DNA of 64,000 bases from Trichormus sp. ATA11-4-KO1 (GCA_019358915.1 JAHHIM010000025.1:1-64000), one strand, 5' to 3'; shown: positions 3,478-9,893, counted from the first letter of the stretch. Program-made: numbers and translations. Notes: a model not told the origin generated them from the sequence alone.

Positions 3478-5109
3478 CTATTCCCTGTCAGTAATCACAG
3501 GTAATAAAACCTGAGAATTAGTATCGCTTCCACAACTGACTTTTAACGTGATGATCTCAGCGTCCAATAAACTGTCACTATTAATTACTGCACCATGACC
3601 AGAATTCATAACATATGCGGGAAAGCACGCAGCACTTAAACTCAAGCGCAGTGCATTACCTTTGGCAATTCGTACACAAGTTGCTTGCAGTTGAATTTTG
3701 ATCGGTAGGTGATCTATCCCTTGCCGACAATGCATGTAACCTTGGGTTAAATTATACACACGGCCATCAGGATGTACTTCTGACAGCACTGCACACAAAT
3801 CATAACTAGGTTGGTCAGCACTACACCAAATTTCGACTGCGACATCCCCTGCTAAATGCAAGTCTTTGATTAACGGTTGACTAGTATAAGTTAAGACATC
3901 AGAACGACAATCAATGTGCGATCGCTCAAATACACCAGCTGGCATGGCTGCATGACCACCTAACGTTGGAACAGGTCGCCAAGGGTCATGAACTAATACG
4001 TCAGTGGTGCTGAGAGTAGAGTTTTGAGTGTTAAGAGTTCCAGAATCTTCTCGGATGCTAGCTAGTCCGGTAGTTGACAAAAAATAGGATTTCTGGTTTT
4101 GTATAGGTAATCTAGGATAATTGCGCCAAATATTACTTCCCATTTCAAATAAGCAAACAGACTGGTCCTCAAGTAAGCCTGTATCCACACCTTTAAGGAA
4201 CTGATCAAACCACCGGATTTGCATCTGATCTACAGGACTCGCAGCCGTAGCGCCAAAGTCGATTTCACCAACTTTGCGACTCCAAGGCAAGTGTGTCCAA
4301 GGGCCAATTAACAGATGTTGGGGTGTGGTGCTACGGGCTGTTATATCTTTATATAAATGCAAAGTTCCACGCAGATAAGTATCAAACCATCCTCCGATAT
4401 GGAACATGGGCAAGTCAACATTTTGCAAATGGCTGTTGGGCGAAAGTTGTTCCCAATAAGCATCTGGCTGAAAATGTGCCAGCCACTCATGATAAAACGA
4501 CTCTGGGGCGAGTTGCTGGAGAATTTCTGGATTAGTTAAAGGTAAATTGCGAGAAGCCGCAAACAAAGCTTGATAGGCAGGTTTGTCTTTTCGCAAACGG
4601 GCGGTTTCTGTAGCTAATTGAATTGCCCAAGCGAGGTTAGTTTGTAAACAAAATGCACCACCTTCATAAGCCCAATCTGTGTACAAATCATAGCCAATCA
4701 TCGCCGGACAAATTGTTGTTAAAGCTGGTGGTTGGGCAGATGCGGCATAAAGTTGAGTCATTCCCTGATGGGAAAAGCCATACATTCCGACTTTGCCATT
4801 GCTACCAGGTAGATTAGCTACCCAATTTACTGTATCTTCACCATCGGCGATTTCATGAACAAATAGCTGAAATTCACCTCCAGAAGTACCACGTCCGCGC
4901 ACATCTTGAATAACTACGATGTAGCCGTGGGCAGCATACCAAGTAGGATGGGCATAGACAACAGTAGAGGCGATCGCTCTACCATAAGGTTGTCGCATTA
5001 ATAAAACAGGAAACTCACCATCTGCATCAGGGCGATAAATATCTGCATCTAGGCGTACACCATCGCGGGTGTACACGGAAGCGGTTTGTTTCGGGAGGAT
5101 TTTCAGCAT
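3478..5109 (-). CDS. CocE/NonD family serine hydrolase
   Basis: RDGVRLDADIYRP, RQPYGR, QDVRGRGTSGG, GFSHQG nucleophile elbow, GGWFD, IGPWTH. Confidence 0.93.
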   Translation of the reverse strand: MLKILPKQTASVYTRDGVRLDADIYRPDADGEFPVLLMRQPYGRAIASTVVYAHPTWYAAHGYIVVIQDVRGRGTSGGEFQLFVHEIADGEDTVNWVANLPGSNGKVGMYGFSHQGMTQLYAASAQPPALTTICPAMIGYDLYTDWAYEGGAFCLQTNLAWAIQLATETARLRKDKPAYQALFAASRNLPLTNPEILQQLAPESFYHEWLAHFQPDAYWEQLSPNSHLQNVDLPMFHIGGWFDTYLRGTLHLYKDITARSTTPQHLLIGPWTHLPWSRKVGEIDFGATAASPVDQMQIRWFDQFLKGVDTGLLEDQSVCLFEMGSNIWRNYPRLPIQNQKSYFLSTTGLASIREDSGTLNTQNSTLSTTDVLVHDPWRPVPTLGGHAAMPAGVFERSHIDCRSDVLTYTSQPLIKDLHLAGDVAVEIWCSADQPSYDLCAVLSEVHPDGRVYNLTQGYMHCRQGIDHLPIKIQLQATCVRIAKGNALRLSLSAACFPAYVMNSGHGAVINSDSLLDAEIITLKVSCGSDTNSQVLLPVITDRE

Positions 5110-5158
5110 GGATATGATTTTAGGCGATCGCTATAATTTGGATGATTACTGCTGTATT

Positions 5159-5522
5159 AAAACAAACCGCCCAGAAAAAAAGTCATAAATTTTTAACAAG
5201 GCATTAAAGCATCTAATCTCCCCAAAACTGCCATATCTTCCGCATCTAAATCTACAGGAATACCACTGCGAATTAATTCCGAAAAATCTTCATTGGGAAC
5301 CATCACTGTCAAAGTGTATAAGCGGGTAGTACCTATATTTTTAATTAAATGTGTTCCAGTGGGAGGTACTAACAAACTATCCCCGGCTTTAATTTGGACA
5401 CTTTTACCATCACACATAGCTATGGCTTCTCCTTTGAGGACAAAAAACATTTCCACCGCCCATTGATGACGATTTGGCGGTGTTTGCCCACCCACATCAA
5501 AAATTTCGATGCAGCAAGTTAA
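5159..5522. repeat. Direct repeat copy A (about 364 bp) flanking the integron
   Basis: Aligned by eye to 8134-8496, including about 34 bp downstream of the cupin stop. Confidence 0.95.
5193..5522 (-). pseudogene. 5'-truncated duplicate of the cupin gene at 8167-8622
   Basis: Matches 8167-8496 at offset 2974 with 10 substitutions; lacks the first 42 codons; the ORF-track start at 5495 is an internal Val codon. Confidence 0.93.
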
Positions 5523-5603
5523 CGGCTCAAATCAGCGGCGGCAGATAAATTTGAACTAAACATCAGCGACGCTTATCCGTCCGTTGCATTTGAATTGTTA
5601 GCC
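5517..5603 (-). mobile_element. Integron attC site 2 (87 bp)
   Basis: Minus strand: R'' GGCTAAC (5603-5597), imperfect palindrome ttcaaatgcaacgga...gccgctgatttgag, R' G|TTAACT (5523-5517). Confidence 0.9.
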
Positions 5604-5830
5604 TGCGCGGTTGGATCAGAAACTTGATTATCTCGCATCACTCTAATCAAAAAACGTAATGCTTCATTAACCGCATCAGCATTAGGAAACATCTCTGCAA
5701 CATCAGGTTCTAAACGGACAGTTGCTCCACCAAAACTTTTCCTCCCAGAACCTAGCCTTCTAACTCGTAGGCTCTTCAAGTCATACTCTGCACGCAAATC
5801 ATCTTCCATTTCTGAATTATTTCTCTTCAT
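5573..5830 (-). CDS. BrnA-like antitoxin (cassette 2); stop codon lies inside attC
   Basis: DDLRAEYD...VRLEPDVAEMFPNADAVNEALRFLI; overlaps the end of brnT. Confidence 0.8.
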   Translation of the reverse strand: MKRNNSEMEDDLRAEYDLKSLRVRRLGSGRKSFGGATVRLEPDVAEMFPNADAVNEALRFLIRVMRDNQVSDPTAQANNSNATDG

Positions 5831-6089
5831 AAGCTTCTCGCTCAGTTCGTGTCACTTCTCTAGCACTGATGAGACGAATCAAATCTCCTCTTTCAGTATA
5901 CGAAACGATCAACAATCGCCCTCGATCCGACTCTCCAACAATGAGATACCTCTCCTCGTCTTCAGAGTGGTCTGGATCATAGAAGTCAACATAGAGAGGA
6001 TCATCAAAAACAGTTTTTGCTTCTTCAAACGAAACTCCATGTTTCGATAAATTGCGTGCTGCTTTGCTTTCATTCCATTCAAACTGCAT
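5817..6089 (-). CDS. brnT: BrnT family ribonuclease toxin (cassette 2)
   Basis: MQFEWNESKAARNLSKHGVSFEEA...HSEDEERY...IRLISAR. Confidence 0.93.
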   Translation of the reverse strand: MQFEWNESKAARNLSKHGVSFEEAKTVFDDPLYVDFYDPDHSEDEERYLIVGESDRGRLLIVSYTERGDLIRLISAREVTRTEREAYEEK

Positions 6090-6095
6090 AAAGTT

Positions 6096-6104
6096 ATTGT
6101 AACA
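6096..6104 (-). promoter_or_regulatory. Putative extended -10 promoter (TGtTACAAT) for brnTA
   Basis: Minus strand ggTGtTACAATaactttATG; 6 nt before the start codon, no SD sequence, consistent with a leaderless transcript. Confidence 0.5.
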
Positions 6105-6108
6105 CCGC

Positions 6109-6480
6109 CTACTTAAACCAATTGTTCATTTCAAGGGTGCAGTTGAATTGGCTTTGAATGCTCGTAAAGTTTGCTTTTTTTTGCAAAAGATTCATAGTGG
6201 TTAAATCTAAATCATCTGGATCAAAACCTTCCAATCGAAATCTTTTCCTCCGAATTCGTTTCATCCACGGTTTAAAAACAAAATCTGCCAATTCGTCTAC
6301 GAAAATTCCAATTGGGTAAACAACAGCAAGCCCTACAAAGGTAAGAATTGTGGTGAAGTCTTTTAGAACTGTTAGATTAATCCAATTCCAACCAAATGCC
6401 GTTAAAACAAGCAGTAACAACCAAATTACAGCCTGTAAACCTGTTATAAGATGCTCTATTACAAGTGCTGTAGTTGACAT
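6109..6480 (-). CDS. Cassette-borne hypothetical membrane protein, possibly 3'-truncated
   Basis: Two hydrophobic segments; GGAGG upstream; starts about 73 nt after the attC1 crossover. Confidence 0.7.
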   Translation of the reverse strand: MSTTALVIEHLITGLQAVIWLLLLVLTAFGWNWINLTVLKDFTTILTFVGLAVVYPIGIFVDELADFVFKPWMKRIRRKRFRLEGFDPDDLDLTTMNLLQKKANFTSIQSQFNCTLEMNNWFK

Positions 6481-6547
6481 TGATTGGTAATTATCCTCCA
6501 GATTTATCAGTTACTCCACTCTACCAACCATTGCTAAGACTTCCGCA

Positions 6548-6633
6548 GGCTAACGTTCCGGTTGAGCGGCTGCAAGTGACCTTTGCTACAAACCAACTAA
6601 CTTTGTCAGTCCGTTCCAACCGGGTTGTTATGC
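6548..6633 (-). mobile_element. Integron attC site 1 (86 bp)
   Basis: Minus strand: R'' GCATAAC (6633-6627), ccggttggaacgga...gccgctcaaccgg palindrome, R' G|TTAGCC (6554-6548); begins 17 nt after the ORF stop. Confidence 0.93.
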
Positions 6634-6649
6634 CGCCTCAACTCTAACA

Positions 6650-7294
6650 TTACAAAGGATATTTATTTATGAATTCTCTAATTGCAAATTTAAGGTTTTC
6701 TTCTGCCTCAAATTTCATTTGATTTGCCTCTCTTTTTGCTTGTTCCACTTCTTGCTCAACCGATTTCTTTTTTACTTTATCCATTAATAGACCGATACCC
6801 ATACCTATTAATGGCGGAACTACAATCATCATTAAAACTCCGCCACTTGAGAGAATACTAGCCAAGCCAAAATAACCTATTAGTGACGCAGCGCACCCAT
6901 AGCCACATCCCGCAGCCGCTTTTTCAACTGATTTATTCTGGGTCTCTATAATTAGTTTTTCAGCTTTTTTCTCTGCGTTTGGAATAGCCTCAAGATAGGG
7001 ACCAACTTCAGCTACAAAGCTATTCATATAAGCTCGATCTTGTTCTCTAGCTAAATCCAGTGTCCTACCCGTTGAGTTCTTAACTACTTGAAGAATCTTG
7101 TAGAGGTCTGCGGCTTTCCAAGAAGTTCCACAATCAAGGCAAGCGTTTACATTTCTATCTTCTCCGGTAACTGCTCCAACTGCTCCACCTACCACTCCAA
7201 ATAAAGCCCAGCCAGCAACGGCACGTCCCCAACTAACATTTGTCTCTTTTTTAAGAGTGACGTGACTAGAACCACAGTTAGGACAATTAGCCAT
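6650..7294 (-). CDS. Cassette 1 hypothetical protein: CxxC...CxxC zinc ribbon-like motif, glycine-rich hydrophobic segments, coiled-coil C-terminus
   Basis: MANCPNCG...CLDCG; GGAG RBS before ATG at 7294 (preferred over 7369). Confidence 0.8.
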   Translation of the reverse strand: MANCPNCGSSHVTLKKETNVSWGRAVAGWALFGVVGGAVGAVTGEDRNVNACLDCGTSWKAADLYKILQVVKNSTGRTLDLAREQDRAYMNSFVAEVGPYLEAIPNAEKKAEKLIIETQNKSVEKAAAGCGYGCAASLIGYFGLASILSSGGVLMMIVVPPLIGMGIGLLMDKVKKKSVEQEVEQAKREANQMKFEAEENLKFAIREFINKYPL

Positions 7295-7499
7295 TTCTTC
7301 TCCAAGACAACACCTAAATATCAGCTTAAGCAACTCATGTTTCGGGGCTCTTCTGAGACAGATCACCACTCAAACATCACTCTGCTTTTCAAGTCCGTAA
7401 GGCTAGAATCCGCACACTTTCTTCAGCAAGCTGCTAAATTTCATAAAAAGTCTTGAACGTTGACAGACAAATTTCAAGAACTGTCCCCACCGAGGACTT

Positions 7500-7540
7500 G
7501 CGGCATAACTATTTATTATACGGTAACTTTCCGTATAATC
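7500..7540 (-). mobile_element. Putative integron attI site
   Basis: Core G|TTATGCCGC (7509-7500) is the exact complement of attC1 R'' GCGGCATAAC; adjacent inverted repeat ttatacgg-N7-ccgtataa; lies between divergent intI and the first cassette. Confidence 0.8.
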
Positions 7541-7726
7541 TTTTTTCAATCATAAATATATCAAGCATTCCAAGGAATTTCTGTTTGAATATACGGAAGA
7601 CTTTTTTTTAACCCCTTATTCGGGTATTATACAAAATTTTTCCGTATATCCCCTGGTGTTATCAAGAATTTTTCTGTATAACATCCTTTTTTAGAGTATT
7701 AAACGGAATTTTTCTGCATAACATCG

Positions 7727-8089
7727 ATGGAACAACGCCCAAAGAAACTGCTTGAACAAGTACAAGATGTTATTCGGCTGAAACACTATTCTTACCAAAC
7801 TGAGAAGACTTATATTTACTGGATTAGGCGCTATATTCTTTTTCATGGCCATCATTTACACGAGAGTAGTTTACAAAAGGCATTAAAGCAAGTGGTTCGT
7901 CAAGCTGGTATTCAAAAAAAGGTGGGTTGTCATATGTTTCGTCACAGTTTTGCTACTCATTTATTACAAAACGGCTATGACATCCGCACGGTACAAGAAT
8001 TATTGGGACATAAGGATGTAAAAACAACAATGATTTACACCCATGTTCTTAACCGTGGTGGTAAAGCTGTTCGTAGTCCCCTTGATTAA
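7727..8089 (+). pseudogene. intI: Integron integrase with a large in-frame internal deletion
   Basis: N-terminus [33 protein letters not shown] joined directly to [11 protein letters not shown]...[51 protein letters not shown]; 120 aa versus about 320 typical; catalytic box I absent. Confidence 0.93.
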
Positions 8090-8133
8090 CCAGGGTTTTC
8101 TAGTTAACGGTATTTACCTATGCAAAAGATGAA

Positions 8134-8496
8134 AAAACAAACCGCCAAGAAAAAAATCATAAATTTCTAACAAGGCATTAAAGCATCTAATCTCCCCAAA
8201 ACTGCCATATCTTCCGCATCTAAATCTACAGGAATCCCACTGCGAATTAATTCGGAAAAATCTTCATTGGGAACCATCACAGTTAAAGTGTATAAGCGGG
8301 TATTACCTATATTTTTAATTAAATGAGTGCCAGTGGGAGGTACTAACAAACTATCCCCGGCTTTAATTTGGACACTTTTACCATCACACATAGCTATGGC
8401 TTCTCCTTTGAGGACAAAAAACATTTCTACCGCCCATTGATGACGATTTGGCGGTGTTTGCCCACCTACATCAAAAATTTCGATGCAGCAAGTTAA
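8134..8496. repeat. Direct repeat copy B flanking the integron
   Basis: Matches 5159-5522. Confidence 0.95.
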
Positions 8497-8622
8497 AGAA
8501 GTATTAGCATTGATGGAATCAAAAATAATCGCCAACCGATTAGAATCATGTGGACTAATACGATATGTTTGATAATCTTTGGGAGACTTGATGACAGGAA
8601 TTACACATCTAGTAGCGTGCAT
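8167..8622 (-). CDS. Cupin domain protein (intact copy)
   Basis: GGQTPPNRHQWAVEMFFVLKGE and AGDSLLVPPTGTH.IKN cupin motifs. Confidence 0.9.
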   Translation of the reverse strand: MHATRCVIPVIKSPKDYQTYRISPHDSNRLAIIFDSINANTSLTCCIEIFDVGGQTPPNRHQWAVEMFFVLKGEAIAMCDGKSVQIKAGDSLLVPPTGTHLIKNIGNTRLYTLTVMVPNEDFSELIRSGIPVDLDAEDMAVLGRLDALMPC

Positions 8623-8664: not shown

Positions 8665-9435
8665 TCAGGAAGGAAGCACTTTGAGAAAAGCTTGCGAGTC
8701 AGTCACAAAACCGAAACATTGCTTGACGTTATACAAAGTTGCTAGCCAACAATACTCAGGAGAGGTCGTAGCAGTACAATCTTTAACTAAAATGCAGTCA
8801 TAGCCTAAGAAGTTGGCATCACATAGCGTGGCCATCACACATTGGTCAGCATTGACACCCCCAAATAATAGTGTCGTTATTCCCAAGTTCCGCAGAATAC
8901 TATCTAAAGGCGTATCCCAAAACCCACTCATGCGGTATTTATCCACACGAATATCTTCCGGTAGCTGTTGGAGTTCGTCTACCGCCGCCGCCGCCCAACT
9001 ACCTGCCATGAGTACTTTAGCACCATTACTGGGCAAGGGATCGCCCAATCCCACCCCGTCGCCTGTGGGGTTGTACACGTGATGTAAACCAGCACTAATA
9101 TTTAATAAGTCGGGACGGTTGCCCCAGTTTAACCAAATTACAGGCACACCAGCTGCACGCAGTTCTGGAAGTAACCTGTTTAAAGGTTCGATGGGCTGAC
9201 GTGCTGGTGTGACATCCACGCCGATATGCGCTAACCAACCATCAGGGTGACAGAAGTCATTTTGCATATCAATGACGAGGATAGCGGTTTTTGCCAAGTC
9301 TAAACGCAGATTTTTGGTTTCTGTTGATAAGATAACGGGTTGTGGGGTCTTTTGAGGACGAGTGATATCTGCGATCGCCTGATTCACAGTCCACGCATTT
9401 GGTGCAACTCCCAATGTCCGAGAAGGTAGATTCAT
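8665..9435 (-). CDS. Cysteine hydrolase (isochorismatase family)
   Basis: VIDMQNDF, KYRMSGF, GVNADQCV give the D-K-C triad; start approximate. Confidence 0.9.
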   Translation of the reverse strand: MNLPSRTLGVAPNAWTVNQAIADITRPQKTPQPVILSTETKNLRLDLAKTAILVIDMQNDFCHPDGWLAHIGVDVTPARQPIEPLNRLLPELRAAGVPVIWLNWGNRPDLLNISAGLHHVYNPTGDGVGLGDPLPSNGAKVLMAGSWAAAAVDELQQLPEDIRVDKYRMSGFWDTPLDSILRNLGITTLLFGGVNADQCVMATLCDANFLGYDCILVKDCTATTSPEYCWLATLYNVKQCFGFVTDSQAFLKVLPS

Positions 9436-9518
9436 ACATGACAACACCCAAGACCATCTTTAAATTTGTAGCTTGAATTGTTACTGCGTGTTCGATAACT
9501 TAATCAAGGTTAAATATC

Positions 9519-9821
9519 GTGAATTTGACTAGCAAGACTGGGCAGCCGATGACTTCCCTAAAAATGTTTGAGATTTGGAAACAATCACGATCTAAAGGAG
9601 GCAAGTACAAGTACTCAGGCGTGGTTCAATCCTTGGCAGACGAAGAGAAATTAACTTACCTCAAACCTTACGCTACAAGGCACACGTTCGCTACTTGGGC
9701 AATAATTAGTAGTGGTATCAGTCCCGACAAGGTAGCGCTGTGGATTGGCGACACTGTAGAGACGGTTTTGAAATATTACTGCCATCCAGAAATAGTCAGC
9801 GCCGAGTGTCCAGACTTTTAG
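9519..9821 (+). pseudogene. C-terminal remnant of a tyrosine recombinase
   Basis: KPYATRHTFATWA...VALWIGD...VLKYY box II-like motif; no N-terminal domains. Confidence 0.8.
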
Positions 9822-9893
9822 TTTTGCTACTCATTTTTTCTACTCAAAACGGTAGTCTTAGAGTGGTGGTTTGAGTCACTTCCAGACATTCTT

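Follow-up and report, generated by a model that had tools for sequence, protein, structure and literature searches.

A decayed chromosomal integron lying between an intact cupin gene and a truncated cupin copy fused to an attC site in Trichormus sp. ATA11-4-KO1

Results

Layout of the locus and the duplicated cupin segment

Trichormus sp. ATA11-4-KO1 carries a decayed chromosomal integron, genuine but dead, between a cupin gene and a CocE-type gene, and the last recombination site of its cassette array (attC2) is joined to a 5'-truncated second copy of the same cupin gene. The locus lies in a 64,000-nucleotide stretch (GCA_019358915.1 JAHHIM010000025.1:1-64000), hereafter the window, to which coordinates refer unless a contig or locus is named. 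Read along the minus strand, the order is an isochorismatase-family gene (9447-8665), the cupin gene (8622-8167) with its tail and a spacer, a remnant of the integron integrase gene intI (itself on the plus strand), the attI region, cassette 1, attC1, cassette 2, attC2, the truncated cupin copy (copy A) and the CocE gene. An earlier note on this DNA had claimed this order from cupin to CocE and an array of two cassettes, and both agree with the open reading frames (ORFs), the Pfam matches and the cassette boundaries.

Copy A (5159-5522, minus strand) consists of the last 330 nt of cupin (5193-5522; codons 43-151 and the stop codon) followed by a 34-nt tail; it lacks the first 42 cupin codons and matches Cupin_2 at 2.1e-14. 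Its counterpart, copy B (8133-8496, minus strand), belongs to the intact cupin gene (8167-8622, 151 aa), of which it comprises the 3' part together with the 34-nt tail. The two segments are direct repeats with a start-to-start spacing of 2974 bp, and a repeat search pairs 5159-5458 with 8133-8432. When the copies were aligned with their flanks using MAFFT, similarity began at TTAACTTGC (5522 / 8496) and stopped 34 nt past the cupin stop codon (5159 / 8133). A hand count on this alignment gave 11 substitutions and one 1-nt indel, or approximately 96.7% identity; the ungapped comparison gives 18 mismatches in 364, a higher number that results from the 1-nt indel. The duplication is thus exact at its breakpoint, and the copies themselves are only about 96.7% identical.

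The two junctions read gagccG|TTAACTTGC at 5523|5522 and acttcT|TTAACTTGC at 8497|8496. After the G of attC2, TTAACTTGC is the cupin sequence from codon 43 onward. The crossover is resolved only to a four-position window, G|T|T|A, because the R' box of attC2 itself would read TTAGCC and shares its TTA with the TTAACT of cupin. This four-position window contains the canonical G|TT cleavage point, and attC2 keeps its 5' part up to the G. By our estimate, a random breakpoint in the 2974-bp unit would hit it with a chance of about 0.0013. At this resolution, the boundary of copy A does fall at the attC2 crossover, as had been proposed.

The opposite, outer end of the repeat (5159 / 8133) lies within GGTTTGTTTT, where homology ceases just past a G|TT. 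Such an end would fit an integrase-type junction left by the original insertion of the platform into the cupin–CocE spacer; the run of T leaves ambiguity. Between the cupin piece of copy A (5522-5193) and CocE there are 83 nt, of which the part beyond the repeat, spacer y (5110-5158, minus strand), shares positions 5110-5136 with the sister species upstream of its CocE gene. On the other side, a 43-nt spacer named x40 (8090-8132) separates the intI stop codon from the repeat; it is common to the sister species and is not found with other intI copies. A GTTAAC in x40 (8103-8108) was considered as a second att-type site and set aside: neither strand folds like an attC, the covariance model described below gives no hit there, and the sister species reads GTTAAG. 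The same spacer holds ccGTTAACT (8101-8112), the same 9-mer as at the attC2–cupin junction, which is either a chance match or a relic of an older junction.

Assembly support

One public sequencing run contains 94% of the words sampled from the window. It is probably the source sample and for that reason does not count as independent support. Contigs from this run bridge 5159, 5522|5523, 8132|8133 and 8496|8497, with at least 60 letters on each side. The copies can be told apart because they differ at 12 positions; A-type and B-type middles occur on separate contigs, with no other letters, at depths of 1022 and 1037, and the flanks have depths of 999-1060. A second run, X2 (soil), contributed nothing but short pieces at low depth that resemble the BrnTA cassette and the attI region.

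These data bear on the possibility of an assembly artefact, or of a chimera in which one co-occurring strain had the integron and another lacked it. The 364-nt repeat exceeds short reads, the genome is a draft of 73 contigs, and the sole run holding the stretch is probably the source data, all of which would allow a misassembly. Against this, the copies are distinguishable and their middles have equal depth, contigs span all four boundaries, and a two-strain mixture would split the depth. We therefore regard an artefact as very improbable. The public run contained no joint of an excised circle and no joint of an empty site, and no such joint is expected because intI is dead.

The integron platform

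The intI remnant (7727-8089, plus strand) encodes 120 aa and carries an in-frame internal deletion of residues 42-241, so that it matches residues 1-41 and 242-320 of the 320-aa IntI of a relative, G016 (locus L029). Its best family is TIGR02249, the NCBIfam integron integrase, at 161.9 bits in two stretches, compared with 470.4 bits for the G016 protein; the deletion places it below the cutoff of 265. Three intI remnants occur in the genome, covering residues 100-320, 1-41 plus 242-320, and 272-317. The two outside the window lie at G000:C5:123493-124155 (L023 5521-6159; residues 100-320) and G000:C37:43173-43310 (residues 272-317), and the remnant at L023 adjoins an attC (L023 5296-5388) and a second BrnT/BrnA-like pair. 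The genome thus holds several decayed integrons, none of them intact.

The attI region (7509-7726, minus strand) is rich in A+T and is homologous to the region upstream of the full-length intI in G016. It lies next to intI and is divergent from it, and cassette 1 is joined to it at a G|TT (crossover aaataG|TTATGC at 7509|7508). Five or six copies of a GAATTTTTCCGTATA-like motif, direct and inverted, occur at 7514-7725; the motif is kept upstream of the intact G016 intI (L029 6723-6879), and an orphan copy with an attC beside it is found on another contig of the genome (G000:C73:20954-21090). These repeats are candidate integrase- or regulator-binding sites.

Cassette 1 (6554-7508, minus strand, 955 bp) contains an ORF of unknown family, listed as 6650-7369 with a likely ATG at 7294, for which no Pfam or NCBIfam match was found. 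Cassette 2 (5523-6553, minus strand, 1031 bp) contains ORF123 (6109-6480), a BrnT toxin gene (5817-6089; BrnT_toxin 6.5e-29) and an ORF in the BrnA position (5573-5830). The first six nucleotides of each cassette are complementary to the R'' box of its own attC, TTATGC to GCATAA in cassette 1 and TTAGCC to GGCTAA in cassette 2, and this agreement defines an array of two cassettes. A third cassette, with an attC between ORF123 and BrnT, was considered and rejected, as the model finds no site there and the start of cassette 2 pairs with the R'' box of attC2.

The two recombination sites, each an imperfect palindrome, are attC1 (6548-6633, minus strand; R'' GCATAAC, R' G|TTAGCC, crossover 6554|6553) and attC2 (5517-5603, minus strand; R'' GGCTAAC at 5603-5597, R' G|TTAACT, crossover 5523|5522). 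Their bottom strands fold alike, into an R stem, a 2x2 loop and an L stem with two bulged bases, and the fold z-score of attC1 is -2.26. Since Rfam gave no matches at gathering thresholds over the whole window, the attC sites were analyzed by hand and with a purpose-built covariance model. An alignment was made of nine sites, taken from the window, from G016 and from the sister species, and their structure was drawn by hand. In this family structure, 85.9% of cells are paired, compared with 28-44% when partners are slid, and compensatory changes are present in 9 of the 20 pairs. The model built from the nine sites detects attCs outside its training set at other loci (E 6e-10 to 3e-17); on the 64-kb window it returns the two known sites only, with the next match at E 0.26. 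Because attC1 (hit 6546-6636, 87.8 bits) and attC2 (hit 5515-5606, 90.8 bits) are both training members, their scores follow by construction, and the independent support for attC2 comes from an attC in the G016 integron array that is 78% identical to it. We conclude that attC2 is a bona fide attC.

Integron-free relatives and the sister species

The genes that flank the integron are native neighbors of cupin. The isochorismatase-family gene (8665-9447, minus strand; Pfam Isochorismatase 4.4e-40) is its upstream neighbor and adjoins it in nearly all relatives. The CocE-type S15 peptidase gene (3478-5109, minus strand, 543 aa; Pfam Peptidase_S15 1.1e-76, PepX_C 1.5e-22) is its downstream neighbor in relatives. 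A search of 61 genomes found cupin and CocE matches near each other on a single contig in many of them, and the isochorismatase–cupin–CocE order is found on one stretch in 7 of 15 loci from other genera; the other eight have no CocE within the approximately 3 kb fetched. Seventy-nine metagenome loci were also retrieved, one of which is the window's own record. Of the remaining 78, CocE lies downstream of cupin in 27. No IntI hit and no second cupin piece was found in any of the 93 loci compared (15 genome and 78 metagenome). The ancestral order is therefore isochorismatase–cupin–CocE without an integron, since it occurs in relatives that lack IntI.

The cupin–CocE spacer is an insertion hot spot in other genera. 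In five of the 15 genome loci (L024, L025, L026, L027 and L028, from G036, G014, G020, G049 and G007), the gap is larger and contains unrelated genes over 1-5 kb, among them Uma2-like genes, a Ser/Thr kinase fusion, a cyclase/hydrolase pair and toxin-antitoxin pairs, as well as tandem repeats of 142 bp. These insertions were examined as possible integrons and discarded, as their genes are unrelated and include no intI. An alignment of relatives' cupin–CocE spacers across 5158/5159 was also tried as a way of reading copy A and its spacer as native sequence, and was abandoned because the spacers are too diverged.

The genus is represented by only two species in our genome collection. In the sister species, G001, cupin is followed by the same 34-nt tail and spacer, the last ~16 codons of intI, three cassettes with attCs in the same orientation, and then insertion sequence (IS) fragments. 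On a second G001 contig, the region upstream of CocE is fused, at the position equivalent to 5136 in the window, to a DUF433-like gene truncated to its 5' part, which closely resembles a gene in one of the cassettes on the first contig; beyond it, IS1-like and IS110-like genes extend to the contig end. Homology between the window and this contig (G001:C30) stops at window position 5136. Array DNA therefore abuts both cupin and CocE in G001, so that the two species have their integron in the same interval. G001 yielded a single cupin match, and the fusion at 5136 would have taken out any copy A.

These comparisons bear out two predictions of the earlier note: integron-free relatives with cupin beside CocE exist at the frequencies given above, and G001 has the predicted donor-like arrangement of cupin, intI (here a remnant) and cassettes, with a single cupin copy found. 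The two species share one interval, with different cassettes and independently decayed integrases, and the integron may never have moved within the genus.

Further observations concern G001 and the far side of the locus. The G001 array is broken up by IS1-like and IS110-like elements, which also lie where the contigs terminate (L021 5485-6292; L022 2646-4531), and the fusion to G001 CocE is marked by a 13-nt insertion and a frameshifted, truncated DUF433-like gene. A BrnTA homolog on G001:C21 was considered as a copy of cassette 2 with its downstream junction, and rejected as a different locus with a different attC. In the window, 9519-9821 encodes a 100-aa C-terminal piece of another tyrosine recombinase (Phage_integrase E 0.005), directly followed by a scrap of ~33 nt (stretch 9519-9852) in which 9820-9839 is 95% identical to intI 7946-7965. 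G001 lacks the 9519-9852 stretch, and its homology ends near 9540. These traces suggest an older integrase-related rearrangement on the far side of the isochorismatase–cupin pair.

Divergence of the two cupin copies

Across 327 coding positions, copies A and B differ at nine, of which eight are synonymous and one is non-synonymous, the latter at a residue that varies among genera. The A–B dS is 0.123 and dN/dS is 0.03; between the two species, dS is 0.152 for the isochorismatase gene, 0.148 for CocE and 0.203 for a neighboring synthase gene. If copy A had drifted neutrally over half of the A–B path, 15.8 non-synonymous changes would be expected and one is seen (P(<=1) = 2e-6); the 95% bound on the time that copy A has spent under neutrality is about 0.018 substitutions per site, compared with a path of 0.123. 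Because the differences are almost only synonymous, copy A is not a decayed in-place duplicate. The pattern would fit either two diverged functional alleles that merged recently or a copy A that is itself under selection.

When changes were polarized by eye against G016, G029, G033 and G019, B and G001 shared about four derived states, giving the tree shape ((B, G001), A). Copy B differs from G001 at 5 of 327 positions in the 3' part and at 6 of 126 in the 5' part of the gene, a ratio of 3.1 compared with 0.51-1.37 in 15 outgroup comparisons.

The tree shape is what would be expected if the event were old and had occurred in place before the species split, for example through unequal sister exchange between attC2 and cupin and a subsequent deletion, or along any of the routes discussed below, with copy A kept by selection as a working truncated cupin and lost from the sister species by deletion. 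The shared derived states of B and G001 and the common interval of the integron in both species support this, as does copy A itself, which retains almost all of the Cupin_2 domain (profile positions 8-69 of 70) and has a reading frame that stays open for 100 codons from a GTG; the G001 deletion fused at the equivalent of 5136 would have taken out copy A. However, on this explanation strong purifying selection (dN/dS 0.03) must have acted, ever since the species parted, on a 5'-truncated fragment that lacks a promoter and any evident start signal. In its sister-exchange version, the deletion must also end exactly where A/B homology ends, and the jump in divergence between the 5' and 3' parts of copy B is left unaccounted for. 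An old in-place event is, in our assessment, decidedly unlikely.

Discussion

The locus is, on balance, probably a recombinant of an integron-bearing and an integron-free haplotype, produced by one integrase-type and one homologous exchange. The first haplotype would have had isochorismatase, cupin, intI, attI and cassettes, with the integron just downstream of cupin as in the sister species; the second would have been isochorismatase, cupin and CocE without an integron, as in most relatives. IntI would have exchanged strands between the G|TT of attC2 and the TTAACT site within cupin of the integron-free haplotype, a non-att 'genomic' secondary site, and a homologous exchange would have taken place in or upstream of cupin. 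The product would retain an intact cupin gene and the integron, and attC2 would lead into a second cupin end that lacks its 5' part, beyond which come the native spacer and CocE; the integrase gene would have decayed afterwards. We infer that IntI made the join, and likewise the homologous step and the direction of the exchange. Since intI has decayed, the structure is now frozen and the process cannot be running now.

Three routes lead to this product, and all three involve the same two exchanges and give an identical result. In the first, a resident integron-bearing chromosome underwent unequal exchange with an incoming integron-free allele. Unequal exchange is easy to picture in a polyploid cyanobacterium. 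We hold this route tentatively, and weight it slightly above a circular intermediate because the sister species holds the integron in the same place. In the second, an incoming linear strand from an integron-bearing donor would have been anchored by isochorismatase–cupin homology and closed by recombination of the folded attC2 with the resident cupin; we think this unlikely, the more so of the three.

The third route is the one proposed in the earlier note. In a donor, recombination of attC2 with cupin would free a 2974-bp circle carrying the cupin 3' end, intI, attI and the two cassettes, which would then enter an integron-free cupin–CocE locus by a single crossover. Topologically, this yields exactly the structure observed. 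G001 offers an arrangement of the donor type, many relatives have the empty site, and the copies are allele-like. By hand count, the first 95 nt of copy A and the last 237 nt of copy B together have 3 differences from G001 and the reciprocal pieces have 11, a split compatible with a crossover near 8386-8404 in which the donor-like pieces are nearer to G001. Excision between an attC and a nearby genomic site has also been seen experimentally (bioRxiv 10.1101/2022.09.11.507474). On the other side, this mosaic is not significant, and neither a circle junction nor an empty-site joint is present in the public run, where a dead intI would leave none. The route requires a lineage without the integron, yet the sister species has one in the same interval, and a non-replicating double-stranded circle must pass between cells, while natural transformation brings in linear single strands (PMC12614218). 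The circle is therefore doubtful. Of the origin first proposed, the logic of an integrase exchange with the neighboring gene combined with homology has partial support, and the self-excised circle, the recent arrival and the G|TT site have none. Similarly, the suggested merger of DNA from two lineages keeps its support from the allele-like copies (dS 0.123; eight synonymous changes and one non-synonymous), and the order 'excise, then home' is unsupported; at least two other routes reach the same product.

Several observations weigh against a two-haplotype recombinant made by IntI. No intact intI exists anywhere in the genome, only the three remnants, so integrase activity can be assigned only to the past. 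The closeness of the 3' part of B to G001 is marginal (Fisher 0.08), and although this part differs from the isochorismatase rate (P = 0.006), rates differ among genes. The apparent A/B switch near 8386-8404 has a Fisher value of 0.067 before correction for the choice of breakpoint and is not significant, which leaves the homologous crossover unplaced; the mosaic analysis rests on three sequences and has low power. The synonymous-only pattern dates nothing if copy A is translated and useful. Most directly, the intact cupin copy reads T|TT at the site, the base before TT is T or C in all 17 genome cupin alleles, and among 79 metagenome alleles only two, both of them distant, have G|TT. The predicted donor codon TCG, which would supply the G, is accordingly absent from the genome alleles and restricted to those two. 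In the known close alleles, the cupin site thus lacks the GWT core reported for IntI1, a preference that may not be that of a cyanobacterial IntI. Since close alleles have T or C, the exchange probably used a non-canonical site, barring an unusual allele that no longer survives; under every homologous route, the allele that was cut has disappeared.

The absence of a canonical G at the cupin site also favors a join made without integrase, by homology-facilitated illegitimate recombination with cupin as the anchor and a 3-nt TTA microhomology at the attC2 core. The TTA is common to the expected attC2 R' box (TTAGCC) and to cupin (TTAACT), and no active intI is left. Such a join would have to fall by coincidence within the four positions, out of 2974, that contain the integrase cleavage point, which would be striking at the chance of about 0.0013 estimated above, and events of this kind usually delete recipient DNA and do not duplicate the anchor. 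We consider an integrase-free join improbable, and retain the recombinant of two haplotypes as the preferred explanation.

The significance of the locus lies in what the exchange enclosed. The event included the gene beside intI, so the unit bounded by it is the entire platform. Whichever DNA was resident, the end of an array would be able to recombine with a host gene, and integron-bearing and integron-free haplotypes could be joined at an attC. The siting of chromosomal integron platforms and the spread of intI between lineages without transposons are unsettled questions, and the locus would be a natural, datable scar of an attC–genomic-site event in a cyanobacterium. A bolder possibility, doubtful as it stands, is that the whole platform behaves as one giant cassette: recombination of the last attC with a host-gene site beyond intI would free a circle of intI, attI, cassettes and a host-gene piece, and this captured piece would act as the homing arm that directs the circle to a related cell's integron-free allele. 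If true, this would amount to transposon-free horizontal movement of 'sedentary' chromosomal integrons. In any case, attC2 and the cupin TTAACT site form a concrete, testable substrate pair.

The structure can be compared with several known systems. Homology-facilitated illegitimate recombination imports foreign DNA through one homologous anchor and one non-homologous join; unlike in that process, the join here is at an integrase cleavage point, the anchor is duplicated and recipient DNA is not lost. As in Campbell-type (single-crossover) integration of a non-replicating circle, direct repeats of the homology arm enclose the insert, relatives have the empty site, and each repeat may be a hybrid of two alleles. 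Unlike in plain Campbell-type integration, the circle, itself hypothetical, would be a product of the integrase that the integron encodes, and an attC marks the end of one repeat.

When cassettes are recruited from linear single-stranded DNA taken up by natural transformation, strands with a folded attC are substrates that need only one strand exchange (PMC12614218), a mode of recruitment that would suit the linear-strand route. As described there, cassettes enter the attI of a resident integron, in contrast to a whole platform entering a host gene.

The integrons of Xanthomonas are fixed downstream of ilvD, and in X. arboricola the intI gene appears to have been replaced by horizontal transfer (PMC12444791). 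The Trichormus integron resembles these in being sedentary, tied to one conserved host gene across the genus, and in having decaying integrases. That text describes a sharp change in identity between the host gene and intI, read as recombination via the flanking gene (PMC12444791). In the same text, the string 'duplicat' occurs 0 times and no host-gene duplication or attC–host-gene junction is described, whereas the scar of the exchange is preserved here. Full-text searches, with subscription journals outside them, listed no publication whose title or abstract start reports an entire integron enclosed by a duplicated piece of host gene that ends at an attC.

A further parallel is attC x attG recombination, between attC and ordinary genomic sites. 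Experiments have demonstrated that attC inserts at genomic GWT sites, the IntI1 consensus, and excises via nearby genomic sites (bioRxiv 10.1101/2022.09.11.507474). Both there and here, attC joins ordinary genomic sequence exactly at the G|TT point. The experimental work concerned single cassettes or plasmids in E. coli and V. cholerae with over-expressed integrase and GWT sites; in Trichormus, the partner site is in the gene beside intI, the unit is the whole platform of intI, attI and array, and the known alleles read T|TT or C|TT. The locus is thus a variant of known integron secondary-site recombination, and what is new is a natural scar that encloses a whole platform.

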